A stretch of DNA of 29,447 nt from a virus (Duplodnaviria; Caudoviricetes), in IMG/VR virus record IMGVR_UViG_3300017658_000230, positions 1 through 29,447 of that record. One strand, 5' to 3'. Shown piece by piece: positions 13,780-27,977 of this stretch. The notes under the pieces were generated by a model that saw only the letters and a list, made by a program, of their open reading frames with translations, was not told the origin of the DNA and did not search any database. Position 1 is the stretch's first letter. The number at the start of each line of letters is the position of its first letter. A program made the position numbers and the translations under genes.

Positions 13780-14606
13780 TCAGTGTGAACTATTTATTAA
13801 TTGAAAAAGATGGCAATATCATTGATCATCGAAAATTTAATCTCAAATTATTAAGTTTTCGTCCACAATCATTGAACCATCTACACACATTCGAGGATAT
13901 AGAAGGTCGAAATGGTTCTATATACAAAGGAACTACATTCGATAAAAGAGAACTAAAGGCTACATTCCTTTTAAAAGGGAGTGACTATTTAGGATTAAAA
14001 TTATTACTTATTGAAATCAACAAATTATTTGCAACGTCCAGTGAAGTATATCTAACTCATTCCGAACAAATGGGTAAACGGTGGAGAGTATTAACAAACA
14101 GCGTGTTTGATCCTGAATATCTTAATAGCAGGATGGCAAGGTTTGAACTTGATTTTATCAGCTCACAGCCTTTTGCGGAGAGTATAGGAACTACATTAGA
14201 CGAATTTTCTCCTGATTCTGGATTATGGGGAATAGGTATGAATTTACCGATGGGGAAAGATTTAATTTATCGACACCGTACAAATGCTTTTCAAATATAC
14301 AATCCTAGTGATGTCAAGATACGTCCAGAAGAATTTCCGATAAAGATATTCTTTAAGGGTGAAAGTGATGGATTATTAATTAAAAATAATACTACAGGTG
14401 ATTATGTTCAATATTCAGGCACAACCAAATCAAGTGACATTATTACGCTAGATAGATTAAGACACTTAAAAAACGGAAATAGCATATTTTCAGCAACTTC
14501 TCGAACATCCTTAAGTTTAAATCCAGGTTGGAATTCTTTTGTAATTTCGGGAAACTCGGGAAGTTTTGAAATATGGTTCGATTTCCGATTTTATTATTAT
14601 TCTTAG
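13776..14606 (+). CDS. Distal tail protein (Dit, Sipho_tail family)
   Basis: Follows the TMP; IEGRNG, PFAESIGTT and LNPGWNSF...FRFYY motifs. Confidence 0.88.
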   Translation: MISVNYLLIEKDGNIIDHRKFNLKLLSFRPQSLNHLHTFEDIEGRNGSIYKGTTFDKRELKATFLLKGSDYLGLKLLLIEINKLFATSSEVYLTHSEQMGKRWRVLTNSVFDPEYLNSRMARFELDFISSQPFAESIGTTLDEFSPDSGLWGIGMNLPMGKDLIYRHRTNAFQIYNPSDVKIRPEEFPIKIFFKGESDGLLIKNNTTGDYVQYSGTTKSSDIITLDRLRHLKNGNSIFSATSRTSLSLNPGWNSFVISGNSGSFEIWFDFRFYYYS

Positions 14607-14620
14607 AAAAAGGTGGTTTA

Positions 14621-17353
14621 GTGAAACCTTTATTTATTAAGATTTTAACAAATGAAATAGAACCGGTTTACGATTACACTGTTACGAAAAATGACAGTTT
14701 AACAGGAGAAAAAACCATAAAGGTAAATGTATTAAAGACAGAACATAACGCAATTGCTTATGATTTAATTCAAGATGAAAATATTTTTATTTATGAAAAT
14801 GAAGAATATGTTATCAAAGACCATACAGAGATTATCGCCAACGGTGTACCAGCAGTCCAAACGACAGCTATACATCGTTTTTTTGATGATTTAAAATGGC
14901 GAAATCGAATATATAGTGTTATGTCAGGAACTTATGGAATTGAAGCATTATTAGACTTTGCATTGGAAGGAAGTGGATACACCTATACGGTAAATCCTTC
15001 TTTGTTAGAACAAACTGTTAAAGTGACGGATTTTGGTAAAAACAATTCATTAGCATTGTTCCAAAATGTACTAGAGTTATTTTCAGCAGAGTTTGACTGT
15101 AGTGGAAATCAAATCTTCTTAACTTCACAAATAGGTGCTGATTTAGATGTTGTATTTAAGCACAAGTATAATATAAACTCCATATCAAAAAATAGCTCCA
15201 CGAATGAACTAGCTACATTTATAAAAGGGTACGGAAAAGAAAAAGAAGAAAATGATATTGCTTCTAATATTTCTATCCCATATGCATCAAAGAAAGGCGT
15301 ATATTACACAGAAACGATAGAAAATAAACAAGCAACAAAGCAAATAGGCGCTTCCTTTTCTTTCAAATTTACTGGTACTGGATTTAGCTTTAAAACAATT
15401 GTTCATAAAATGGGTGGTAAATGGACGTTTACGATAGACAAATCAACAAAGACAATCACCACATATGCAACCAGTACAGCAGAAAAAACATTTGAGATTA
15501 TCAGAGGATTAGAAAATAAAGAGCATACGGTAACAGCTGTTTTCAAAAAAGATTCTGATAACCCTAATACCAAAAATAAAACCCAAGTCCCATTTAATTA
15601 TCTTTTAGATGGAAATATTATTACTGTTTTTCGTTCTTTAGAAGGTGACGAAAAATATTCCGTTGTAACAAGTTACACTAGTCCACTATCCGAAGTGTTT
15701 GGAATTAAAATTGCAGAGCCTCATTATGATGATGAAATAACAGATAAAACAGCATTGGAAAAGAAATTAGAAAGTATGTTGACAGATGATATACCAGTTT
15801 CTATAACATTCACTGCTGTTCAATTGGAAGAAATGAATTTGAGTAATATCAATAAAGGTGATCGTTGCTGGTGTATATTGGAACCTTTTGACGTAAATAC
15901 ACAGTTACGAGTAGTTGAAATAGAAACTTATTCAAACGAGAACAAAACGCCTGTTCTTACCTTTGGAAACATACAACAAGATGTAACTAAAACGATGTCT
16001 GATTTTAACAGCACTCAAAAAACAGTCGATGTCACAATAGATAAGCAAACTAAAACAGTAAAGGATACGGCACTAAGTACAAATGTACAAAAAGCTGTAA
16101 CAAACGCTCTGAAACTTGGGGATTTATCTAGTCTACCTGATTGGTTGCAAGAAGATTTAGCAGATGCAATATTGCAAATGTACGAGTCTTTTACAGAAAT
16201 CAATGTGCGACAACCTCCTTATAATCTTAAAGCAGATGGTACAGATGAAAAAGAAGTATTACAAAAGCTTTTAAATTTAGCTGATGAAGATGGCTCTGTT
16301 CATTTGTATTTTCCAGAAGGTGAGTATGGTATGAGTGGTTATTTAAGATTGTATAGTAATACTTTTGTAAGGATGCATCCTAAAGCAACCATAAAGAGAT
16401 TAGGTACTGGATACAAAGTTTTTGTAAATGGGGAATTAGGAAATGCTGATTTTGTGACTGGTTATAATGGAGAAGGAAATATTCATTTTACAGGTGGTTG
16501 TATTGATTGTAATGCTTTTGAAAATCCATTAGCTGCAGATAAAGCAACTACTGCTTTTGATTTAGGTCATGCAAAAAATCTATCCTTTGTAAATGTAGAA
16601 ATGAAGAATAACCAAAATGGTCATTTTGTACAGATTGCTAGTTGTCAAAATGTCTTATTTGATAATTGTTACATTCACGAAGTAAACCATCTAGATTCTA
16701 CATACATGAACTGTGAAGCTATTCAGATTGAAGTAGCTACGGATGTTTCTTTTCCTAGCTTTGGTGGATATGACAGCACTCCAAGCCAAAATATTAGAAT
16801 TATAAATTGCAATTTTGAAAATCTAGTACGAGGTGTAGGTACACATGGTTATCCAGCAGGAGAAGATGGAATGCCTTCTGTTTACTGTTCAGATATCCTT
16901 CTTGAAAATTGTCAGTTTACTAATATTACCGATAACGCAATATCTCTTCTTGCTTATAAACGAGTAAATGTATTTAATATTCAAATGGAAGATATAGGTG
17001 GCTATGCGCTGTGGGCTAGATATTTATATGACTCTACAATAGACAGGTTTAGTTGTAATCATGTAAGTAAGAGTGGTATTTACATGCAATATTCGGAGAA
17101 TAACGAAGTTGGAAAAGTCACTTTAGAAAATACATGTGAAATCGGAGATTATTCAGCAATTAGGCTAGACAATGCTAATAATAATCCTTTCCGAAATCCT
17201 GTTGTAAGAGGTGCTACTCACAGATGGGCATTCTTTGCAACAAGTTGCGAAAATAACAGATTATATGATTACAATTTTGAAAATGGACTGGTAGGAAATA
17301 TAGGTGGAGATTCTTTGCCGTATGCGCCAACATTTACACAGGTTAATAATTAA
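14621..17353 (+). CDS. Tal / prophage tail endopeptidase-like hub with inserted beta-sandwich domain and C-terminal parallel beta-helix (putative depolymerase)
   Basis: RBS AAAGGTGGT before GTG 14621. ATFIKGYGK and GDRCW hub motifs; LKADGTDE...LYFPEGEY beta-helix start; EAIQI motif. Confidence 0.82.
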   Translation: MKPLFIKILTNEIEPVYDYTVTKNDSLTGEKTIKVNVLKTEHNAIAYDLIQDENIFIYENEEYVIKDHTEIIANGVPAVQTTAIHRFFDDLKWRNRIYSVMSGTYGIEALLDFALEGSGYTYTVNPSLLEQTVKVTDFGKNNSLALFQNVLELFSAEFDCSGNQIFLTSQIGADLDVVFKHKYNINSISKNSSTNELATFIKGYGKEKEENDIASNISIPYASKKGVYYTETIENKQATKQIGASFSFKFTGTGFSFKTIVHKMGGKWTFTIDKSTKTITTYATSTAEKTFEIIRGLENKEHTVTAVFKKDSDNPNTKNKTQVPFNYLLDGNIITVFRSLEGDEKYSVVTSYTSPLSEVFGIKIAEPHYDDEITDKTALEKKLESMLTDDIPVSITFTAVQLEEMNLSNINKGDRCWCILEPFDVNTQLRVVEIETYSNENKTPVLTFGNIQQDVTKTMSDFNSTQKTVDVTIDKQTKTVKDTALSTNVQKAVTNALKLGDLSSLPDWLQEDLADAILQMYESFTEINVRQPPYNLKADGTDEKEVLQKLLNLADEDGSVHLYFPEGEYGMSGYLRLYSNTFVRMHPKATIKRLGTGYKVFVNGELGNADFVTGYNGEGNIHFTGGCIDCNAFENPLAADKATTAFDLGHAKNLSFVNVEMKNNQNGHFVQIASCQNVLFDNCYIHEVNHLDSTYMNCEAIQIEVATDVSFPSFGGYDSTPSQNIRIINCNFENLVRGVGTHGYPAGEDGMPSVYCSDILLENCQFTNITDNAISLLAYKRVNVFNIQMEDIGGYALWARYLYDSTIDRFSCNHVSKSGIYMQYSENNEVGKVTLENTCEIGDYSAIRLDNANNNPFRNPVVRGATHRWAFFATSCENNRLYDYNFENGLVGNIGGDSLPYAPTFTQVNN

Positions 17354-17370: not shown

Positions 17371-19386
17371 ATGAATCTTAATAGAATAAAAGATGCTTTT
17401 CAAGATTGGTTATGGCGAAAAGAGCAAAATGAAAATTTTGATATTATTGAACAAGCTGATTTAGATAGACAACAAGAAATACAAAATACGAATAAGCGTA
17501 TTAACAATTTAATATTGAATGCTTCTGATTTGCCTGAAGTAGTTGATGCCCGTGGCGACTATGATTTATTAGGAGAACGATTAAATGCAATGGAGGGAGC
17601 ATCAGAAGAATTAAAATTCGATATTACTAAATTAAATCCTAAATTTATCACGGGCATTGGCGGTATAAGAAATGCTGTTAACCAAAGTATTAATATAGAC
17701 ACAAAAACAGCACAACTTTATACCACACAATCAGACAGCCAAACTCCAGAAGGTTTCTACATAAACAGAATGACTCCATCCGGTAAAAATATGAGTTCTA
17801 TGTTAGTGCCAAATGGTGGTCATGGAACGATGATAGCATTGGATAGAAAAACAAACGGAAATTTGATGATCTGGTTCTATCACACAGGACAAGGTAAATT
17901 AGTGTGTTATCCATACAAAGATAACTATGTGTTGAAAGAAACAGAAATAGCTGGATTAACAGATTATACGCCTGCATCTTTAAAGAGTATTTATTTTACT
18001 CCATCCTTTGATGAGCATTATGATTATTTCTGCTTTAGAAGAGAAGATGCTGTTGTTGAGTTAAGAAAAAGAACAGATGTCCTAGCCAAAGTAGATAATG
18101 TGTTGTATAAGGTGAATATTGATCCTACACAGAATACAGACGAGCGCCCAATGCAAGGCTGCGTGTCTTATGGAACAGATATATATTACATGTCAGGGAC
18201 TGCCTATGATATGACAAAAATACAAAAATATGATGCTATTACAAATAAAAAAGTATTAGATTATGATGTAACTAAAATTGTAGGAGAAGATGGAATAAGG
18301 CTCTTTCGGGATGGATTTGCAGAACCGGAAGGGCTTTGTTATTTTGTCAATCCAGTAACAGGAAAGCATGCGTTATTATTTGTCATTACAAGTGGAGGTT
18401 TAGGAAAAAGATTTAATCAACTCTATGGCTTTGTACAAAGGAATGACAATGAGTATTGGGAATCCATCGCTAGAACTGGAGCGCAAAATTATGCTATGTC
18501 AAAAGGAGACGGTCGTGCTTTATCTGCACCAGATGGAATTACTTCTGTAGATGATTTAGTGAATCCAGGTAATTATTATTTGCAAAATGACGTTTTTTCA
18601 TTATTAACAGGCTTTCCTTATCCGCATGGTGGTGCAGGATGGTATGTAGACGTTTATCCAACAACTCAAACTTTAGGAGCTAGACAAGTATTCACACGTT
18701 CTAGTGGTGAAAGAAAAATGTTTCAAATATGGAGAACGTTTGATTTAGACAGGGAAACGTTTAAATATAGTTTTGGAGAATGGACGATAACCCAAACAGC
18801 CAGCACAAGCCAAGAATATTTGGATGCTAGTGAATGGGGGAACAAAATATCTAATGTGATTTTAGCAGGCGAGTATTACATAACATTTGCACAAATGAAT
18901 GAATTTACGGATGCTCCTTATACTGATGCAGGTGCAAGATTAATTGTTTCTGCTGGAGATAATGGCGGTTCGGTAAGACAAACCATTATTCGGAATTCCG
19001 ATACCATTATTGATGAACATGTTCGCAATGTTGTAGTAGAAACAAAAACACCTTCTGCTGATTGGATACATTTTAGACAGACGGGATCGATGTCTTACTC
19101 TGATATGACTCTATCGAATGGAGCAAGCAATCCCGACTCCAATTCAAAATGGAGAGCTGCAAGTGATGGGAAGTTTATTATTGTTCGTGGTGCAGTAACA
19201 GTTCCTTCTCTTTCATCGGCTACTAAAATAGCTACATTACCGAATAGTTTAAAGCCTAGTATGTTATGGGAAGAAGAACAACTTGGAGTTAAGTTTGCGT
19301 TTCAAGCGGACGGAACAATTGAAGCAACGAATACTAGTGGCAGTGCTATAAATGTGCGAATGAACACAGTAATATCTATTTATTAA
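17371..19386 (+). CDS. Receptor-binding protein, TagC/phi11 Gp45-like beta-propeller (putative wall teichoic acid binding)
   Basis: EVVDARG stem; VNQSINID...LYTTQ, GGHGT, PMQG and AEPEGL propeller motifs; duplicated C-terminal G-x-YY domains. Confidence 0.72.
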   Translation: MNLNRIKDAFQDWLWRKEQNENFDIIEQADLDRQQEIQNTNKRINNLILNASDLPEVVDARGDYDLLGERLNAMEGASEELKFDITKLNPKFITGIGGIRNAVNQSINIDTKTAQLYTTQSDSQTPEGFYINRMTPSGKNMSSMLVPNGGHGTMIALDRKTNGNLMIWFYHTGQGKLVCYPYKDNYVLKETEIAGLTDYTPASLKSIYFTPSFDEHYDYFCFRREDAVVELRKRTDVLAKVDNVLYKVNIDPTQNTDERPMQGCVSYGTDIYYMSGTAYDMTKIQKYDAITNKKVLDYDVTKIVGEDGIRLFRDGFAEPEGLCYFVNPVTGKHALLFVITSGGLGKRFNQLYGFVQRNDNEYWESIARTGAQNYAMSKGDGRALSAPDGITSVDDLVNPGNYYLQNDVFSLLTGFPYPHGGAGWYVDVYPTTQTLGARQVFTRSSGERKMFQIWRTFDLDRETFKYSFGEWTITQTASTSQEYLDASEWGNKISNVILAGEYYITFAQMNEFTDAPYTDAGARLIVSAGDNGGSVRQTIIRNSDTIIDEHVRNVVVETKTPSADWIHFRQTGSMSYSDMTLSNGASNPDSNSKWRAASDGKFIIVRGAVTVPSLSSATKIATLPNSLKPSMLWEEEQLGVKFAFQADGTIEATNTSGSAINVRMNTVISIY

Positions 19387-19399
19387 GGAAGGTGGAAAT

Positions 19400-21631
19400 A
19401 TGGATAAAAGCGCAGATTTAACATTTAATATCTCAGCTACAACGAATCAAACTATAACATCAAATATCCGTTTTTCTACACAAGATGAAGGTACAGCCAA
19501 GCTGACCTTCTTTTTATTTAAGGACGGTGTAGCTTTACCTTTAAACGCAGTTACAGGTAAATTAGCGCTACGAATGATTGATGGAAGTAAATTTGTTAAA
19601 ACAGTAACAATAGTTGATAAAGTAAATGGAATTGCTGAATACATACTAACGACAGAAGAATTAAAGCATTATGGAAAGATTAATGCAGAATTATATCTAA
19701 ACTATGACAACAATCAAAAGATGTCTGTTCATCGATTCTCTTTTGTCATCGAGCAGGCGCTGATCGATGCGGATATTGCAGTAGATACAGAGTTTTATGT
19801 AGATGATTTTTATACGATGAAAGAAGCCATCGAAACGATTGCTACAGAAACTCAAACCAATGTGGATTTAACAAAAGAAAAAGCAGATGAAATTATTAGT
19901 TTAATCGCAGAAAATGACGTTGCAAAGAAGTCGGAATTAGAAACCACTAATGCACAGTTGGCAACTAAAGTTGAATCGGCTGATTTTAACGAAAATAAAG
20001 CAGAAGTTTCTGCACAATTGACAGCTGTATCTAATGTCATTGTTAGCATAGATAAATTCCCTAGATTAGTTCCAGAAATAGTAGATACGTTTAGATTCCA
20101 AAGAGCGATGGATTGGCTGGAAAGTATAGGGGGAGGTTTATTATTTCTAGCTGCGGTTGAATATGTTTTAGGGCAAGTGAAGATTCCTAGTTATGTAGGT
20201 ATAACTGGCATATACAGAGCTTCTATTCTTAAAATGGCTGATAATACGAATAAGCCTATGCTTGTATTAAAATCTAATACTACACAAATGGTTTGTCTAA
20301 CTAATTTTATCATCAACGGTAATAAAGATAATCAAACTTCTAGCAGTGCAAGAGGAGTCGAATTTATTAATACCACGGATGCTGCACAAGTATTGGCAGC
20401 TAGTAATGTAGGAGAGCATGATTGTAGACATTTAATTAATGATATTTACATTTTCCAAACAAAGGGTGACGGTTTTTATATTGAAGGGCGTGGAGAATCT
20501 CAAATACACAAGCTTCAGACGTTAAATTGTGAAGGCGTTGGGATCTATGCTAATTCAGCTGATACATGGTATAACGATTGTTCTGCTGGAAATAGTGGGT
20601 TAGAAGGAATAATACAAGGAGTGAAGGCTACTAATAATCATTTTGATCATTGTAAATCATGGTTTAGTGGTCGAGTAGATGCTAGTCGTGGAGTAGGGCT
20701 CTTGCTCCTTGGTGATCGTGCTACTTTAACCATTTGTGAAGCACAAGATAACAGCAAACATGGATTTGTGTTTAGCGGAAAAGACATAGAAGGTTCTGGT
20801 CTTATGGCAGAAGCCAATGGATGGCAATATGCCACAGGCTCACAATGGTTGGATGGAACAGGTTTTCTATTTTATGGAGCTGAAAACTGTAATATCCATG
20901 GTGTAGCAGCTGACAGATTTGCTAATGAGGCAAGTGGAAGTCATCAAACATTTGCTGTTCAATTCTCAGGTGGGGCTAAAAATAATTTTGTTTGTGTAAC
21001 TTCAAGGAATATGAAGGCGGCAGCAATCCCAGTTACACAACTAAATGTTAATAACAATAGGTATATTATTACAGAAATTAAGGTTGATGGCACTTCTAAA
21101 CAAAGAGTTAACTTTCAACATCTAAACATCAATATGGATAATCCATCAGACGTTACTGCTGTTTATACACGGTCACTTCAAACTTTAGGACACCAATATG
21201 GACACATTACAAGGTTTGATACAGATGAGGAAGAGTCTGTTATGCATCGATGGGAAAAATACAATGCTGCGGGTGTTTATAAAGGAAGATGGGACTTCAT
21301 TATTAACCACGCCACTAAAAATGCAAAATTGGCATCAGTAGATGGTGGATGGTTAGAAATAGATTCTATCTTAAAGGTAAAAGACAGTGCTTGGAATGGG
21401 AAACATTTTATGCTGGGGGGATTCCACTTATGGATCGATAGCAAGAATGTAATGAGATATAAAAGTAATACACCAACATCTGAATTTGACGGCTTGCCAC
21501 TAGGAGATGACGGCGTTTCTTCTATTTCTTCTGCGCCAACTCGAGTCAGACAAATGGCAACTGTAAATGGAATTGCTTATATTGCTGTCGGTACATCTTC
21601 TCCAGATGACTGGAAGCAGATCACTAATTAG
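19400..21631 (+). CDS. BppU-type upper baseplate N-terminus fused to a pectate-lyase-like beta-helix (tail fibre/spike)
   Basis: FSTQDEGTAKLTF...GIAEYIL...YGKINAELYL BppU-N motif; beta-helix (INGNKDNQ, EAQDN); C-terminal GTSSPDDWKQI. Confidence 0.8.
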   Translation: MDKSADLTFNISATTNQTITSNIRFSTQDEGTAKLTFFLFKDGVALPLNAVTGKLALRMIDGSKFVKTVTIVDKVNGIAEYILTTEELKHYGKINAELYLNYDNNQKMSVHRFSFVIEQALIDADIAVDTEFYVDDFYTMKEAIETIATETQTNVDLTKEKADEIISLIAENDVAKKSELETTNAQLATKVESADFNENKAEVSAQLTAVSNVIVSIDKFPRLVPEIVDTFRFQRAMDWLESIGGGLLFLAAVEYVLGQVKIPSYVGITGIYRASILKMADNTNKPMLVLKSNTTQMVCLTNFIINGNKDNQTSSSARGVEFINTTDAAQVLAASNVGEHDCRHLINDIYIFQTKGDGFYIEGRGESQIHKLQTLNCEGVGIYANSADTWYNDCSAGNSGLEGIIQGVKATNNHFDHCKSWFSGRVDASRGVGLLLLGDRATLTICEAQDNSKHGFVFSGKDIEGSGLMAEANGWQYATGSQWLDGTGFLFYGAENCNIHGVAADRFANEASGSHQTFAVQFSGGAKNNFVCVTSRNMKAAAIPVTQLNVNNNRYIITEIKVDGTSKQRVNFQHLNINMDNPSDVTAVYTRSLQTLGHQYGHITRFDTDEEESVMHRWEKYNAAGVYKGRWDFIINHATKNAKLASVDGGWLEIDSILKVKDSAWNGKHFMLGGFHLWIDSKNVMRYKSNTPTSEFDGLPLGDDGVSSISSAPTRVRQMATVNGIAYIAVGTSSPDDWKQITN

Positions 21632-21649
21632 AAGGAGGTTTCTTTTTTT

Positions 21650-21964
21650 ATGAGAGAAGTAAATAAAACAATTGAGGTAAATTCAATTGTTAAAGTGAAT
21701 AAGACGATAAAATACGAAGATATAACCATGTACTCGGTAAATACGCAAAATAAAGTGATTACAGCCATTCTTTCAAGTAAAGATGAACAGCAAACAGAAA
21801 TCAACTCTGAGAATTTTGAGATAACTGGCGATAATTACAACTTGTTAATGTCAGATTCTCCTAGTTTTGCACCAGGAAAGCCATCAGATGATTTCCGAAG
21901 GGAAGACTTATTTTATATAATCGATAAGATTAGAGATGAACAGCAAACACCACTTAATGAGTAG
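21650..21964 (+). CDS. Hypothetical protein, probable tail-fibre partner/chaperone (104 aa)
   Basis: RBS AAGGAGG; directly follows the fibre gene. Confidence 0.6.
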   Translation: MREVNKTIEVNSIVKVNKTIKYEDITMYSVNTQNKVITAILSSKDEQQTEINSENFEITGDNYNLLMSDSPSFAPGKPSDDFRREDLFYIIDKIRDEQQTPLNE

Positions 21965-21976
21965 GTGTATTTTTTT
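21947..21976 (+). terminator. Possible terminator closing the tail operon
   Basis: ACACC-ACT...AGT-A-GGTGT followed by a T-run. Confidence 0.45.
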
Positions 21977-22010
21977 ATGAAAAAATTTCATGGAAAGTTG
22001 GCGGTAAACT

Positions 22011-22160
22011 GTGACGGTTAAACAATTAAAAGAATTTCTTGAAAATATTCCTGATGATTATACTGTGGAAGTAGATGATTCTTATAACCAAACTTATTGG
22101 AAACTTGGAGATGAAACAGAAATTATAATCCATAAAGAAAGTAAAACAATTGTGTTTTAG
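22011..22160 (+). CDS. Small hypothetical protein (49 aa; absent from the ORF track)
   Basis: Translated by hand as MTVKQLKEFLENIPDDYTVEV...KESKTIVF*; GTG start with RBS-like GGCGGT. Confidence 0.6.
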   Translation: MTVKQLKEFLENIPDDYTVEVDDSYNQTYWKLGDETEIIIHKESKTIVF

Positions 22161-22226
22161 TATGGAGTAGGATACTACTGTGCAGCACTGATAATTAAAA
22201 AATAAGGAAAAAAAGAAGCCCCTTTC

Positions 22227-22388
22227 CTATTCGGATTGGGACTTTTCTAATCCTTTTATTATTAATTGTCTGATAGCTTCATTTCGATTTTTAATTTTAT
22301 TCTCATGCCAGTAATTATGTATCTCTTCCAATAATTCATTTGGAAAGGTAACTAATACTTGTGTATTCTTTTCTTTATCAACTGCCAA
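22227..22388 (-). CDS. Ribbon-helix-helix (CopG-like) DNA-binding protein (53 aa)
   Basis: RBS AGGAGGTG before TTG 22388; QVLVTFPNELLEEI...NRNEAIRQLI is a beta-alpha-alpha pattern. Confidence 0.82.
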   Translation of the reverse strand: MAVDKEKNTQVLVTFPNELLEEIHNYWHENKIKNRNEAIRQLIIKGLEKSQSE

Positions 22389-22409
22389 ATTTATACACCT
22401 CCTAAAAGT

Positions 22410-22433
22410 ATTATAAGTTATATAACTTATAAT
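22410..22433. repeat. Perfect 24-bp palindrome ATTATAAGTTATATAACTTATAAT (probable RHH operator)
   Basis: Read directly. A 15/16 copy of its core (TATAAGTCATATAACT) recurs at 22468-22483. Confidence 0.85.
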
Positions 22434-22461
22434 TGACAATAAGAATATTCGTTCTTATAAT
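22433..22461 (+). promoter_or_regulatory. Consensus sigma-A promoter for the recombinase, with a LexA (Cheo)-box-like site in the spacer
   Basis: TTGACA(22433-38)-17 bp-TATAAT(22456-61). AGAATATTCGTTCT at 22442-22455 has one mismatch to GAAC-N4-GTTC. Confidence 0.8.
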
Positions 22462-22505
22462 AGGTTATATAAGTCATATAACTACATGTGGATGAGGTGA
22501 TTAAA

Positions 22506-23510
22506 TTGGATGTAATTGATTTTGCGAAGGAACAGTTGTTAAATGATTTGGCTGAATTGGAAAACGCTCGGAAAAGTAAGGATTATGATGATGACAGATA
22601 CAAATTAAAGTTAGCTGGTATTTTATCAAATTACGATGTGAAACGTGAAACTAATGAGGTATTTGATTCTGACATACAGGAAAAAATCAGTGTGTTTCTT
22701 TCAGCTAAGAAAATTGAAGGGTTGTCTCCTAAAACTTTAGAAAATTATCGTCTTGAGTTAAATCTCTTTGATAAGGCTTTAATTAAGAATGTTTCTGATA
22801 TCACTTCTAATGACATACGTTTATACTTATCAAGATACGACAATTTAAAAATGTCCACTATAAGAAAGAAATTATGGGTTCTGAAAAGTTTCTTTGGATG
22901 GTTGCATACAGAAGAAGTTATTTCAAGAAATCCAACTGCAAAAGTAAAACCACCTAAAGTAGAATCGTTAATGGTGAAAACTTTTAGCATAGAAGAATTA
23001 GAAATGATGAGGGAATCTTGTCAGACACTAAGAGAAAGAACATTAGTCGAATGTCTCTATAGTTCTGGAGCAAGATTAAGCGAGTTGCAGCAATTAAATA
23101 TTAGTGATGTAGATTTTCAAGATAAGAGTAGTAAGGTAATCGGTAAAGGGCAGAAGGAGCGAATTGTCTATTTTTCTATTAAGGCAATTTTCTATTTGAG
23201 AAAGTATTTAAGAAGTAGAAATGATGATTGTGAAGCGTTATTTATCACACAAAGAAAACCTTACAGAAGGATAACTAATCGTGGAATACAAAGAGAAATA
23301 AGAATAATTAGTGAGCGAGCAGGTATCTCTCAAAATATTAGTCCTCACTGGTATCGTAGGAGCATGGCTACAAACATGATGGAAAAAGGTGCTTCATTAT
23401 CAGCAGTTCAGCATATACTTGGTCACTCTTCACCAAACACTACACAACTTTATTGTAATGTGCCTGAAGAGATGAAGAAAGAACAACATAGAAAATATTT
23501 ACCGTTATGA
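22506..23510 (+). CDS. Tyrosine recombinase, XerC/XerD-like with N-terminal SAM-like domain
   Basis: Complete catalytic set: SGARLSEL (R), GKGQK (K), HWYRR (HxxR), LGH, TQLY. The RBS GAGGTGA favours TTG 22506. Confidence 0.93.
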   Translation: MDVIDFAKEQLLNDLAELENARKSKDYDDDRYKLKLAGILSNYDVKRETNEVFDSDIQEKISVFLSAKKIEGLSPKTLENYRLELNLFDKALIKNVSDITSNDIRLYLSRYDNLKMSTIRKKLWVLKSFFGWLHTEEVISRNPTAKVKPPKVESLMVKTFSIEELEMMRESCQTLRERTLVECLYSSGARLSELQQLNISDVDFQDKSSKVIGKGQKERIVYFSIKAIFYLRKYLRSRNDDCEALFITQRKPYRRITNRGIQREIRIISERAGISQNISPHWYRRSMATNMMEKGASLSAVQHILGHSSPNTTQLYCNVPEEMKKEQHRKYLPL

Positions 23511-23532
23511 GAGCCGAAGAAGGCTCTTTTTT
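23510..23532 (+). terminator. Rho-independent terminator
   Basis: AGAGCC-GAAGAA-GGCTCT followed by a T-run. Confidence 0.7.
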
Positions 23533-23560
23533 ATTGTCCATTTTAAGGAGGTGATTCCAA

Positions 23561-23755
23561 ATGGAGCAACGTGTTTCAAAACTAGAAGATGAAATGAAGG
23601 ATGTAAAAACTCGTTTGGCGGTAGCTGAGTCTAACATTAAGGATATTAAAGAAGATATTTCTTCAATAAAAAGTAATACAACATGGCTATTAAGGATTGT
23701 AGTAGCAGCAATAATCGCAGCCATATTTGGATTGATTTTAAAAGGAGGGGTTTAG
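23561..23755 (+). CDS. XhlA-family lysis/holin-associated protein
   Basis: Coiled coil followed by NTTWLLRIVVAAII and a single C-terminal transmembrane segment. Confidence 0.82.
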   Translation: MEQRVSKLEDEMKDVKTRLAVAESNIKDIKEDISSIKSNTTWLLRIVVAAIIAAIFGLILKGGV

Positions 23756-23980
23756 ATGGATAAAGCAAGTGTTACACGATTTGCTTTGTTAATTGTAGCA
23801 GTGATAAATTCTGTGCTAAACATGCTAGGCTACGAAACTATTCCTGAAAATTTAGTTAATGATATCATCGCTGTTGGATCAGGTTTATACATATTGTACG
23901 CAGGATGGAAGAACAATTACTTAAGTAAAAAAGGATTAAAACAGAAAGAAATACTTAAAGAAAATGACTTAGCAAAGTAG
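23756..23980 (+). CDS. Holin (SPP1 family)
   Basis: MDKASVTRFALLIVAVIN...WKNNYLSKKG pattern. Confidence 0.88.
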   Translation: MDKASVTRFALLIVAVINSVLNMLGYETIPENLVNDIIAVGSGLYILYAGWKNNYLSKKGLKQKEILKENDLAK

Positions 23981-24011
23981 GAGTGATAACTAAAGGTTAT
24001 CGCTCTTTTTT
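23980..24011 (+). terminator. Rho-independent terminator between holin and lysin
   Basis: GAGTGATAAC-TAAAG-GTTATCGCTC followed by a T-run. Confidence 0.65.
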
Positions 24012-24038
24012 ATTACAAAAAATTAGGAGGAATTTATA

Positions 24039-24764
24039 ATGGCATTCACACCTAAATACAATGAAAGAAATTTAAAAAACTTAGCTCAACTTGGTGACAA
24101 TACTAAGAAGAAAGCTATCCAATGGTACGAATATTTAGTTGAGAATGAAATTGAAGTATTAATTTATGAAACTATTCGTTCCGTTGAAACACAAAAAGCA
24201 AATGTAGCTAAAGGCGCTTCTCAAACAATGAAATCCTATCATATTGTAGGTCAAGCATTAGACTTTGTAATGATTGATTCTAAAGGTAATGCATTATGGA
24301 GTGGCTACGGTTCTTCTGATGCTAAAAAGGCTATTGTAAAAGCTAAATCATTAGGTTTTGAATGGGGCGGAGATTGGTCAGGATTTGTAGATAAACCACA
24401 TTTACAGTACAACTATAAAGGCTATGGCACAGATACCTTTAAAACCAAAGGTGACGCTATTTCTTTATCTGAAGCTAAAAAATCCACATCTAAAACAACT
24501 ACAACAGTTAAGGAAACTGAAACAAAGAAATCTACATATACTTTACCAACTAGTACATACAAAAAAGGCTCTAAAGGTGCTGCTGTAAAACAAATTCAAG
24601 AAGCGTTGAATAAACTTTACTTCAAATGTGGAACTGCTGACGGTATTTGGGGGGCTAAAACAGATGATGCGCTAAGACGTTTCCAAAGTGTTTATTGCAA
24701 CCCTGTAGATGGTATTTATGGCAAGAATACTCGTGCTGCTATGTTAAAACAATTGAATAAGTAA
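24039..24764 (+). CDS. Endolysin: M15 L-Ala-D-Glu peptidase (Ply500/CwlK-like) plus PG_binding_1 domain
   Basis: R..ETQ, SYHIVGQALD and WGGDW..FVDKPHLQ motifs; Thr/Lys linker; KKGSKG.AVKQIQ...ADGIWGAKT...VDGIYG. Confidence 0.93.
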   Translation: MAFTPKYNERNLKNLAQLGDNTKKKAIQWYEYLVENEIEVLIYETIRSVETQKANVAKGASQTMKSYHIVGQALDFVMIDSKGNALWSGYGSSDAKKAIVKAKSLGFEWGGDWSGFVDKPHLQYNYKGYGTDTFKTKGDAISLSEAKKSTSKTTTTVKETETKKSTYTLPTSTYKKGSKGAAVKQIQEALNKLYFKCGTADGIWGAKTDDALRRFQSVYCNPVDGIYGKNTRAAMLKQLNK

Positions 24765-25594: not shown

Positions 25595-26926
25595 TTGATT
25601 TTTGAAGCTGTTACAACAGTGTTGATGGGAGGTTTAGCTCTACAAGCTCATCTCTCAAAAAACGGAGTTGGAAATGACTCGAAAAAATTAAACAAAATAT
25701 TTGCTCTCACAGGACTTAATGTAAAGGACGGAACACAAACACTTACTACTCAATTAGTAAAGAAACGCAATTATGATTGGGGGACTGAATATCGTTACAG
25801 AATCCCTTTAGGAAGGAGCTTTGAGGACTATATCGCCAAACAAAAATCGATTGAAGCAGGGATAAATACACGTACAGTTAAACTTCAAATAGGAGATCTA
25901 AAACAGCTTAAATTAGACCGGAATATTGTTCAGAGTATTAGAAGTCTCTATAAGAGAAAACTCACTGAGAGGAAGGAAATAGAGCTATCCTATGATGGAA
26001 TGTTAATCATCCGTGTGTATGATGAGCCAATGCCAACATTAGTCGAAATGTTTAATGGAAAAGGTTGGTCTGTTCCAATTGGAATTATTAGAGAAAAGAA
26101 CAAATCTATATTTCACGACTTTGAAAAAATTCCACACTTTGTATTAGGCGGAGCCACACGATATGGAAAATCGAACTTAATTAATGGTATTATTGCTTCT
26201 TTAATTAAACAACAGCCGAATCATGTAAAGCTTCATCTTGTGGACTTAAAAGGTGGCGTGGAACTATGTGACTATGAAAATATTAAGCAGACTGTTTCTA
26301 TCGCATATGAGCCAGAAGAAGCCAGGGATGTTTTAGCATCTGCCTATGAAGAAATGAGAAAGATGCAACAAAGGGTTAGAAAGCTGGGGAAAAAGAATGT
26401 CCAAGAAGCTGGCATAAAAGAAAGGCATTTTATCATCATTGATGAAGTTGGAGAATTAAATCCTGATGAAGCAGTAGATAAAAAGGATGTAAAAAAAGAT
26501 GGATTTGTCATTCATAAAAGTGAAAAAACATTAAAAGAAGAATGCCAAAAATATATGAGTCAAATATCGCGATTAGGTGCAGGCTTAGGATTTCGTTTAA
26601 TTCTAGCGACACAATACGGAACAGGAGATATCATACCTAGACAATGCAAACAAAATAGTGATGCAAAATTATGCTTTCGTGTCCAGTCTTCCACAGCATC
26701 AAGAGTTGTGTTAGATGGAGAAGGGGCAGAGAAATTACCCGAAATAAAAGGTCGTGCCATATATCAAACAGCCGATAAAAAAGTCATAGTTCAAACTCCA
26801 CTAATAACTTCAGAAATTATCCATTCCATTATTAATCCACACATAAAAGAGGTGAAACCAGTTGAAACAGCTAAACAAGCGTCAAGAAGCAATCCTATTA
26901 TCATTAAAAAAACTGGACTTTCTTAA
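25595..26926 (+). CDS. FtsK/SpoIIIE-family ATPase
   Basis: Walker A GGATRYGKS, VDLKGGVEL, Walker B IIIDE, RLGAGLG.RLILATQ and GAEKLP..KGRA motifs; hydrophobic N-terminus; RBS AAGGAGG. Confidence 0.92.
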   Translation: MIFEAVTTVLMGGLALQAHLSKNGVGNDSKKLNKIFALTGLNVKDGTQTLTTQLVKKRNYDWGTEYRYRIPLGRSFEDYIAKQKSIEAGINTRTVKLQIGDLKQLKLDRNIVQSIRSLYKRKLTERKEIELSYDGMLIIRVYDEPMPTLVEMFNGKGWSVPIGIIREKNKSIFHDFEKIPHFVLGGATRYGKSNLINGIIASLIKQQPNHVKLHLVDLKGGVELCDYENIKQTVSIAYEPEEARDVLASAYEEMRKMQQRVRKLGKKNVQEAGIKERHFIIIDEVGELNPDEAVDKKDVKKDGFVIHKSEKTLKEECQKYMSQISRLGAGLGFRLILATQYGTGDIIPRQCKQNSDAKLCFRVQSSTASRVVLDGEGAEKLPEIKGRAIYQTADKKVIVQTPLITSEIIHSIINPHIKEVKPVETAKQASRSNPIIIKKTGLS

Positions 26927-27455
26927 TCGTGATCAACTACAAATTATCCACAAACTAGGAAAGGTTAGAAATGCCAATAGAATACTCAAAGAGCTATCAC
27001 CTTACTTAGAATCCTACAGAGAAGAATATTCCACTATTTATTATTTAAATACTGAAGGTAGAGCATATGTAAATTCAAATAAAATTAGACGAAAGAATCC
27101 ATTTGTAAATCACACAATTATGAGAAACTATTTTTACATTTTTGCAAAGTGTCCTGTTGAATGGGATAACGAAATAAGTGTAACTGATGGGCTAACTACT
27201 TTAGTTACAGATACATGGTTTAAAGTAAATGGAAAGTATCACTTTCTAGAAGTGGATTCTTTACAAAAGATGAAAGAAAATCGAGCAAAGGTGAAGAATT
27301 ATCTAGCATTGTTTAATGCAGGACATCTAAAGAAACATTTTGGATACTTCCCACCTTTGATATGGCTGACTACAACTGAATTGAGAAGAAAGCAGTTAAA
27401 AGAATTGTGCAAGGAATTACCGTGTGTTGTTTATACGATTGATGAAATTAGATAG
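26862..27455 (+). CDS. Replication-relaxation family-like protein (winged HTH plus PD-(D/E)xK-type nuclease)
   Basis: N-terminal wHTH (LNRDQLQ...YYLNTEG); HTIMRN, VTDTWF, FLEVD and LIWLTTTELR motifs; overlaps ftsK by 65 nt. Confidence 0.72.
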   Translation: MKQLNKRQEAILLSLKKLDFLNRDQLQIIHKLGKVRNANRILKELSPYLESYREEYSTIYYLNTEGRAYVNSNKIRRKNPFVNHTIMRNYFYIFAKCPVEWDNEISVTDGLTTLVTDTWFKVNGKYHFLEVDSLQKMKENRAKVKNYLALFNAGHLKKHFGYFPPLIWLTTTELRRKQLKELCKELPCVVYTIDEIR

Positions 27456-27548
27456 CATTTTATCCTACGTGATATTGCAGGATATTGTTTGATAGTCAAC
27501 TATCTTTGTAGATATTTATTGATAAACATTTATAAGGGAGAGATTAAT

Positions 27549-27977
27549 ATGCAAACAATAGCATTTAATGAATTCATGGACGGTAGCTATAAAACAGCTA
27601 AGAAAGAAGTTAAGAAAAAATCTAATGTAGGTAAACTGGTAAGGAGAGTAGGAACTTCAATTGCTATTCCACTTATTATGGCTAAACCTGCCTTTGCTGC
27701 TAGTCCAACAGATGCAGTTCCAGTCGGTGCGACAGAGTGGATGGGAGAACAAACTTTATCAGCTTTAGCACATGCATTAGATCCATTAGTTGATGTACTA
27801 GTTGCGTTATCTTTTCCTGTTGCTAGTGTAATTATTGTAGGTGGCTGTTTCTTCTTTATGCTAGGTAATAGCGATAAGGCTTGGAGTACAATTCAAAATG
27901 CTGGATTAGGCTATGTATTGATACAGATTTCTCCGTTGATATTGAATGTGTTAAAGCAGATTGGGAATGCAGTATAA
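27549..27977 (+). CDS. VirB2/TrbC pilin-like membrane protein (142 aa)
   Basis: RBS AAGGGAG before ATG 27549. Basic leader, PAFAA cleavage-like motif, then two hydrophobic helices linked by GNSDKAW. Confidence 0.55.
   Translation: MQTIAFNEFMDGSYKTAKKEVKKKSNVGKLVRRVGTSIAIPLIMAKPAFAASPTDAVPVGATEWMGEQTLSALAHALDPLVDVLVALSFPVASVIIVGGCFFFMLGNSDKAWSTIQNAGLGYVLIQISPLILNVLKQIGNAV

Follow-up and report, generated by a model that had tools for sequence, protein, structure and literature searches.

The tip of the tail fibre in the viral DNA analysed here (a stretch of 29,447 nucleotides, hereafter the window) lies in a cassette bounded by two directly oriented, Xer-like sites, S1 and S2, with a gene for a Xer-like tyrosine recombinase next to it. 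As a genetic structure this arrangement is well supported by comparison of related loci. We infer, with a probability of roughly 60%, that the adjacent recombinase exchanges the tip cassette between two phage genomes by crossing over at their matching sites.

The tip cassette and its recombinase module

Pfam profiles identified the window as the late half of a Bacillus-type siphoprophage, with terminase, head, tail, lysis, FtsK and replication-relaxation genes, and with HNH/terminase genes at its left edge. The features in and around the cassette are the following.

19400-21631, + strand: BppU_N fibre gene, upstream of the recombinase
19400..19959, + strand: constant 5' part of the fibre, with the BppU N-terminal anchor (PF10651, residues 3-144) and a coiled linker
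19947..19978, + strand: site S1, with left arm CTAATGCACAGTT, core GGCAAC (19960-19965) and a right arm that is degenerate; read in the fibre frame as N-A-Q-L-A
19966..21631, + strand: variable fibre tip, a predicted beta-helix tailspike/depolymerase
20007..20038, + strand: degenerate S1-like site with core GACAGC (20020-20025), the second-best + strand match of the S1 matrix (8.3)
21650..21964, + strand: fibre partner of 104 aa, inside the cassette (phrog_22445)
22011..22160, + strand: cargo ORF of 49 aa, inside the cassette (ORF call)
22157..22188, + strand: site S2, with left arm TTAGTATGGAGTA, core GGATAC (22170-22175) and right arm TACTGTGCAGCAC; same orientation as S1
22227..22388, - strand: RHH repressor gene, 53 aa (phrog_4738)
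22411..22483, no strand assigned: control region with palindromes, promoter and LexA-box-like sequence
22488..23510, + strand: Xer-like tyrosine recombinase, 340 aa from GTG (Pfam Phage_integrase and SAM-like domain)
23509..23528, + strand: predicted intrinsic terminator, which parts the recombinase from the lysis genes

S1 is placed at the constant/variable joint of the fibre and S2 lies 3' of the cargo ORF, so that the cassette between them (19966-22169) comprises the tip, the partner gene and the cargo ORF. The order of fibre, partner and small extra ORF upstream of an intact XerD-like recombinase, with lysis genes beyond, had been proposed from the letters alone, and the profile matches and reading frames bore it out. 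XhlA, an SPP1-type holin and an M15 endolysin follow the recombinase module. By eye, a terminator-like hairpin follows the 104-aa partner gene at about 21947-21975, and a 99-aa ORF like this partner sits after the different tip of a related prophage (L313). The 49-aa cargo ORF matched no family in Pfam, PHROG and NCBIfam-type profile searches, and its nearest ESM Atlas cluster consisted of small viral hypothetical proteins (0.90).

The variable tip had 16 homologues besides itself, many with other N-termini. A profile of this tip family matched a pectin-lyase-like protein, a pre-neck appendage and tailspikes in the PDB, and the window tip is predicted to be a beta-helix tailspike; a part in host range would follow by analogy with that class. 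Relatives of the fibre N-terminus were not found when it was used as a query of viral sequences. Elsewhere in the window, a Tal-like tail protein (14573-17353) has a CE2_N-like region and a C-terminal beta-helix, with no S1-type site scored in it, and the right end of the prophage (25595-27977), common to L098 and L313, holds FtsK/SpoIIIE, replication-relaxation and pilin-like membrane genes.

The recombinase has the full R-K-H-R-H-Y set of tyrosine recombinases, with R196, K220, H287, R290, H313 and Y322 invariant in 38/38 aligned homologues; an alternative start is TTG at 22506. Its Pfam content was limited to the SAM-like core-binding and catalytic domains, with no arm-binding domain. Such arm-binding domains contain beta-sheet, and in the AlphaFold model (pLDDT 86) the N-terminal 47 residues form two helices with no strands. 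The closest solved structures were XerD (1a0p) and XerA (4a8e/5hxy). The protein scored below the NCBIfam equivalog cut-offs for XerC and XerD (199 vs 335 and 194.6 vs 329.6), and the only such cut-off that it passed, narrowly, was that of NF040815 (recomb_XerA_Arch; 226 vs 220).

The recombinase had been said to possess its own promoter and terminator and a divergent RHH gene, and all three were recovered. The promoter, TTGACA-17-TATAAT at 22433-22461, agrees with the consensus at 12/12 positions. The RHH gene product had a 1e-17 match to phrog_4738, "transcriptional repressor", and weak matches to NikR-type RHH models; its gene cluster (c15, 12 members) is usually divergent from the recombinase, and it is likely an autoregulator of the divergent pair. 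A perfect 22-bp palindrome at 22411-22432 has a second copy near 22457-22483. Among the loci shown it was present in the RHH class and absent from the HTH class, and since it tracks the RHH gene rather than the recombinase, we dropped it as a candidate core site for the recombinase and take its copies to be likely RHH operators. A LexA-box-like sequence, AGAAT-ATTC-GTTCT, lies at 22442-22455, and similar boxes stand between -35 and -10 of the RHH-class promoters, close to the B. subtilis LexA consensus CGAAC(n)4GTTCG as given in the accessible part of PMC4551915. These elements suggest that the recombinase would be regulated by both the RHH protein and LexA.

Loci in which the recombinase gene has no divergent repressor carried a structured leader in its place. 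A match to the Rfam family int-alpA (RF02996) was found at L124:3190-3265, with similar leaders in L105, L111, L112 and L120; when the int-alpA leader itself was searched for, 1/6 loci tested was positive. The same enzyme is thus found with three regulatory solutions, namely RHH, HTH and RNA leader.

Homologues of the recombinase numbered 577 at E 1e-60 or better, and the named ones among the best 120 were from Bacillota. In the best 80 viral loci the gene stood mostly after a variable tail gene, before a holin or before a Tal gene and in either orientation, usually with a divergent RHH or HTH gene; a minority of loci were in replication modules, and one homologue was present in a ParM-bearing phage. 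A tree was built from 178 thinned sequences, with locus labels assigned by eye and a midpoint root. In it an 89-member clade (support 0.92) includes all 66 tail-labelled sequences and has the window, L098 and L101 as its basal members, while a gut-phage clade and an hsdS-associated clade fell outside it. At the replication-module copies in L126/L296, L121 and L174, several weak S2-like sites occur between small ORFs upstream. Arrays of small ORFs with a repeated intergenic motif of 70-85 nt lie 2.4-7 kb upstream of the recombinase in L153, L154 and L156, past the lysis genes.

The sites and their link to the recombinase

Candidate motifs were first noticed by eye. We then ran a motif search from random seeds on the DNA flanking 73 related recombinase genes, leaving the window out. 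Apart from terminators and ribosome-binding sites the search returned one motif, and after refinement its two best matches in the whole 29-kb window were at 22160 (S2) and 19950 (S1). A separate search upstream of the S2-type site in 39 loci gave a second motif, which lay inside the fibre genes (S1). With both matrices trained without the window, S1 was the second-best window match of the S2 matrix and the best of the S1 matrix. When the relatives of the window were also left out of training, S1 still ranked first at a modest 11.7 bits, which is below the 12-bit cut used for the counts given below, and L098 likewise fell below the cut when the window was withheld. The window S1 is degenerate and, judged by its letters, may be a poor substrate today. 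An exact-pattern scan with the S1 consensus returned only 4 loci, two of which were already in the set compared.

The sites share a palindromic 13-6-13 consensus, TTAnTGCGCAnTW / 6-bp core / WAnTGCGCAnTAA, and the left arm of the S1 consensus and the right arm of S2 are reverse complements of each other. S1 was in an identical frame in 39/42 loci listed, encoding A-[QH]-[LKQSM]-A-[DE], and across loci S2 was placed after the last cassette gene. Both sites were oriented like the fibre gene, regardless of the direction of the recombinase. The degenerate site at 20007-20038 lies 60 nt past S1, and the homology of the tip to P0123 and P0134 begins at its S-A-Q-L-T motif; it is probably the scar of an earlier, stacked junction.

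Codon usage pointed to a constraint on S1 at the DNA level. TTG was the Leu codon of [QH]LA[DEQ] in 29/46 recombinase-locus cases vs 7/23 controls, with a background of 0.16-0.17, and the base entering the S1 core was G at 0.98, whether the codon was that of Leu, Lys, Gln, Ser or Met. It could be argued that no site-specific system exists here, that a conserved protein hinge is where homologous or illegitimate recombination exchanges the tips, and that the recombinase is an unrelated add-on. Variable fibre tips are indeed common to most phages, the A-Q-L-A-D hinge encoded by S1 is recurrent, and TTG exceeded the background in the controls too. Yet the non-coding S2 has the same arm consensus and marks the other breakpoint within a few bases, and together with the codon bias at S1 and the strong co-occurrence of site pairs with the recombinase gene this makes the hinge explanation extremely improbable in our judgement.

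An ordered S1-S2 pair was present in 54/72 recombinase-bearing viral loci vs 2/74 Dit-anchored tail loci that lack the gene, with training done each time without the locus scored and its blastn relatives. These counts retain some circularity: matrices from these very loci made the first choice of training sites, and they partly presuppose the S1/S2 core classes. The 72 loci are the best 80 less 8 duplicates, and the 74 are 80 less 2 with a recombinase and 4 under 10 kb. Among the 18/72 recombinase loci without a pair were 8 replication-module loci (labels by eye), 3 with short upstream flanks, and L098 itself. In bacterial-genome loci (n=19), 6/7 new tail-type ones carried the pair. Block-shuffled loci amounting to 2.1 Mb gave 3 S1 and 21 S2 matches. 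In a BppU control, 9/269 genomes matched, and at the cut-offs used an S1-type match was seen in 3/3 with the recombinase and 0/6 without it; one of the latter, L313, has a decayed S1 despite none being scored at these cut-offs.

Sites without an adjacent recombinase were seen in L313, L340, L394 and L211, in agreement with an enzyme acting in trans, with loss of the gene or with use of the sites by a host enzyme. These few phages also speak for the proposal that host XerC/D-type enzymes use the sites as true pdif-like modules and that the phage recombinase does something else, as does the site arm, which we take to resemble the XerC arm of dif. Against it, both arms follow one consensus and are symmetric, as expected of a single enzyme, and the pairs track the phage gene in the counts above. 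We consider that host enzymes are quite improbable as the main users of these sites.

The sequence-only reading had offered the resolution of phage dimers as a mundane alternative, with the recombinase acting mainly at dif-like sites and tip variation arising as a by-product. The closeness of the structure to XerD and XerA, the Xer-like architecture of the site, and the homologues in replication modules and in the ParM-bearing phage all agree with such a role. One site would suffice for it, however, and the second lies within the fibre gene, where its frame is maintained and synonymous sites are constrained. Furthermore, two phages with two fibre genes (L153, L125) carry two separate S1-S2 pairs and one recombinase, and a backbone without the module exists (L313); the RHH-recombinase module was likewise absent in 61/63 Dit-anchored tail loci whose downstream sequence was at least 7 kb long. 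Dimer resolution is therefore an improbable main role. The enzyme did not appear to be the required or sole attP x attB integrase either, given the L313 backbone without the module and the presence of another serine or tyrosine recombinase in 4/5 relatives' records tested.

Homology breaks, cores and a model of tip exchange

Boundaries of the variable segment near 19950 and 22190 had been suggested before the sites were found, together with a conserved BppU 5' end and sharp breakpoints among related prophages, and the alignments agreed with this. The window and L098 aligned over 19386-19966 and 22168-23761 with nothing between. L313, a prophage in a 1-Mb bacterial contig with a different fibre of 894 aa, aligned over 17372-19967, so that this alignment breaks at S1; between its S2 and lysis genes, where the window has the RHH-recombinase module, the module is absent. 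The S2 core GGATAC is common to the window, L098 and L313, and the S1 cores of the latter two are each one base off that of the window. These alignments place three unrelated tips in one slot of one backbone. Similar sharp changes were found in L107/L117, L110/L113/L114, L153/L156 and L138/L147.

Among the pairs homologous left of S1 (n=11), the homology of 7 ended 1-13 nt past the core start, and among those homologous right of S2 (n=27) it began 0-13 nt before the core in 11 and further right in 14, while in the remaining 2 it extended into related or shared cassettes; the pairs are not independent, and a conserved motif draws alignment ends toward itself. L185 and L186 are unlike each other left of S1, and from S1 through the cassette, the recombinase and the lysis genes their identity is about 99%, a pattern that reads as a single crossover at S1 alone. 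In L185/L186 and in L009/L242, identity is 100% from core position 5 with position 4 different, which suggests that a central core mismatch is tolerated. Contigs of six public runs over 18500-24500 contained no S1-S2 joint, at a low depth and with rare forms being dropped by contigs. A joint of 21973-23756 in the two best public runs extends just 27 nt to one side and probably comes from another phage.

The cores of S1 and S2 differed throughout. Their first three bases were alike in 0/69 cassettes and agreed in 89% of S1xS1 pairs across loci; the two cores had at least 2 mismatches in 68/68 cassettes, and the lack of cores within one mismatch (0/68) was not significant (permutation P 0.06). 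Core classes were distinct in 69/69 cassettes, and both cores tended to stay with the backbone. In the exchange-partner pairs viewed, the cores differed by 0-1 base. The window cores differ only at the two central bases (both GG..AC), and across loci S1 and S2 co-vary at core position 6 (0.83 vs 0.75 permuted, p 0.002; the loci are not independent).

The main rival is an integron-like process, in which S1xS2 recombination would free a circle of tip and cargo, and the empty site would take up a different circle. The direct orientation of the sites, the shared ends of the window cores, the co-variation at position 6 (which an S1xS2 excision model would predict) and the overlap of cassette stop codons with the S2 left arm, as in the 49-aa cargo ORF, are in its favour; so is a nested chromosomal clade that has direct GAC-core sites with differing last bases (L298, L019, L302, L307). 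On the other side, an empty hybrid site, with a fibre stub running into the S2 right arm, was not found among the loci examined, nor were silent-tip arrays in the close clade. The consistently distinct core classes and the L185/L186 crossover at S1 alone also disagree with it, and we regard this process as unlikely. The idea that a recombinase drives exchange of the 3' receptor-binding module plus cargo was thus supported by the sites and the homology breaks, whereas its integron-like, excise-and-capture form was less supported, as S1 and S2 behave like independent crossover points.

The differing cores, the missing empty hybrid site and the single crossover in L185/L186 together point to like-site crossovers between two genomes. 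In the exchange that we propose, the recombinase, which presumably cuts these sites, would cross S1 with the S1 of another phage and S2 with its S2. The first crossover would join two phage genomes sharing a cell into a cointegrate, and a second event, at the other site or through homologous recombination, would resolve it and leave the tips exchanged. The unequal cores would keep a phage from deleting its own tip, and S1xS2 joining would end the fibre about seven codons past the junction. The RHH protein and LexA would hold the recombinase off until DNA damage, and a new tip would change the host range.

The usual explanations of tail-fibre mosaicism are recombination, homologous or illegitimate, and inversion among tips already carried. 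If the proposed exchange is true, the gain of host-recognition domains from other phages would be a programmed, regulated event, and a dedicated enzyme with defined sites would explain the hinge motif of many Bacillota fibres. Tip exchange would then be a natural form of recombinase-mediated cassette exchange, with core variants ready-made. More tentatively, and at somewhat less than even odds, Bacillota phages of different tail types may share a standardised in-frame A-Q-L-A-D site and a damage-induced recombinase acting in trans, so that tips form a pool common to unrelated phages, and a derived branch may move defence cassettes within bacterial chromosomes.

Comparison with shufflons, pdif modules and other systems

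A classic invertible segment had been judged not to fit, as no silent inverted fibre copy was visible. Repeat searches near the gene gave no such copy and no long repeat, and repeats of the shufflon type were missing from the window and from the close clade alike. Since the sites are direct, their 6-bp cores differ and no silent tip lies in the window, this is not an inversion shufflon. The cassette, compared by sequence, would work like pdif-module exchange with an anatomy near that of the Rin shufflon, and it fails defining tests of shufflon, integron and XerC/D. Searches of the open-licence literature gave no description of a phage recombinase that is dedicated to one fibre tip flanked by two unequal sites. 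A paper on Cry-toxin recombination (PMC13730063), as far as its accessible part goes, concerns another system and was set aside.

According to the accessible parts of two reports, pdif/xrs (dif) modules, like the S1-S2 cassette, are bounded by Xer-type sites with 6-bp cores, the flanking cores being unequal (PMC11705084, PMC13141974). In Acinetobacter, plasmids cointegrate at pdif sites with identical or one-base-different cores, as in the exchange-partner pairs viewed here, and the tested cassettes were not excised (PMC11705084). Replacement of a single module through cointegrate formation and resolution is described, as is excision where direct sites have near-identical cores (PMC13141974). 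In the pdif case as presented there, host XerC/XerD act on C/D sites in plasmids and whole genes are moved, whereas the window has one phage-encoded enzyme and sites with symmetric arms, one of them within a coding sequence, where recombination would yield chimeric virion proteins.

The Rin shufflon of Bifidobacterium and Eggerthella prophages, in the portions of PMC6109161 and PMC8778435 at hand, has a XerD-like, armless recombinase that adjoins the receptor-binding gene and is distinct from the integrase, a crossover site at the constant/variable joint, and a directly oriented site also past that gene's 3' end. It differs in having several silent tips in cis and identical 11-bp repeats in both orientations, and in working by inversion, while the window has one tip, two unequal cores and no inverted partner. 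With shufflons in general (Rin/Gin/Min) the window has in common the in-frame site at the constant/variable joint and the adjacent recombinase; silent tips in cis and inverted sites of identical core were absent from the window, the latter being found in the gut-phage clade.

Integrons pair a tyrosine recombinase (IntI), with a LexA-like box in its promoter, with variable cargo bounded by attI/attC sites. The window recombinase, with a LexA-like promoter box and site-bounded variable cargo beside it, resembles this layout. Unlike an IntI-family integrase it scored far below the models (TIGR02249, 89.3 vs 265; NF011946, 50.7 vs 435), there is one cassette in the window rather than an array, and the site splits a gene in frame. 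XerC, XerD and XerA share the fold, the catalytic set and the palindromic arms around a 6-bp core; the window enzyme differs from XerC/XerD by its scores and by its paired unequal sites around a variable tip. Tyrovirus gp50 is likewise a tyrosine recombinase within a phage structural module, and differs in standing before the tape measure gene and in having one site, as described in the accessible part of PMC9703825. Relatives of 35-40% identity stand beside hsdS copies with inverted segments in type I restriction-modification loci (PMC9881135, accessible part). These hsdS-associated invertases form a separate branch of the tree, and the S1/S2 site pattern, sought with one regular expression, was absent in 11/11 hsdS loci tested.

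The gut-phage clade (L010-L015, L244-L285) has a recombinase of 40% identity with a true inversion shufflon upstream. Its sites have the same arm consensus as the tail-cassette sites, with identical cores (GGAAGA, GAATGT, GGAGAA) in inverted orientation within a locus, and in the near-identical contigs L259/L260 and L268/L270 the arms are reciprocally swapped. Such swapped arms around identical cores indicate that the core is where this recombinase family crosses over and that the cores it joins are matching ones, and this clade offers the best natural evidence for that, as far as sequence can tell.

A nested clade (support 1.0; L298, L019, L299-L302, L307, L309, L310) was found in bacterial chromosomes, away from phage tails. 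Its direct GAC-core sites (L298:6918-9015; in L019 at 1106 and 2865 nt after the recombinase start) bracket reverse transcriptases and SMC/AAA genes, with Kiwa KwaB and OLD-like genes nearby, and this clade is possibly a defence-cassette system.
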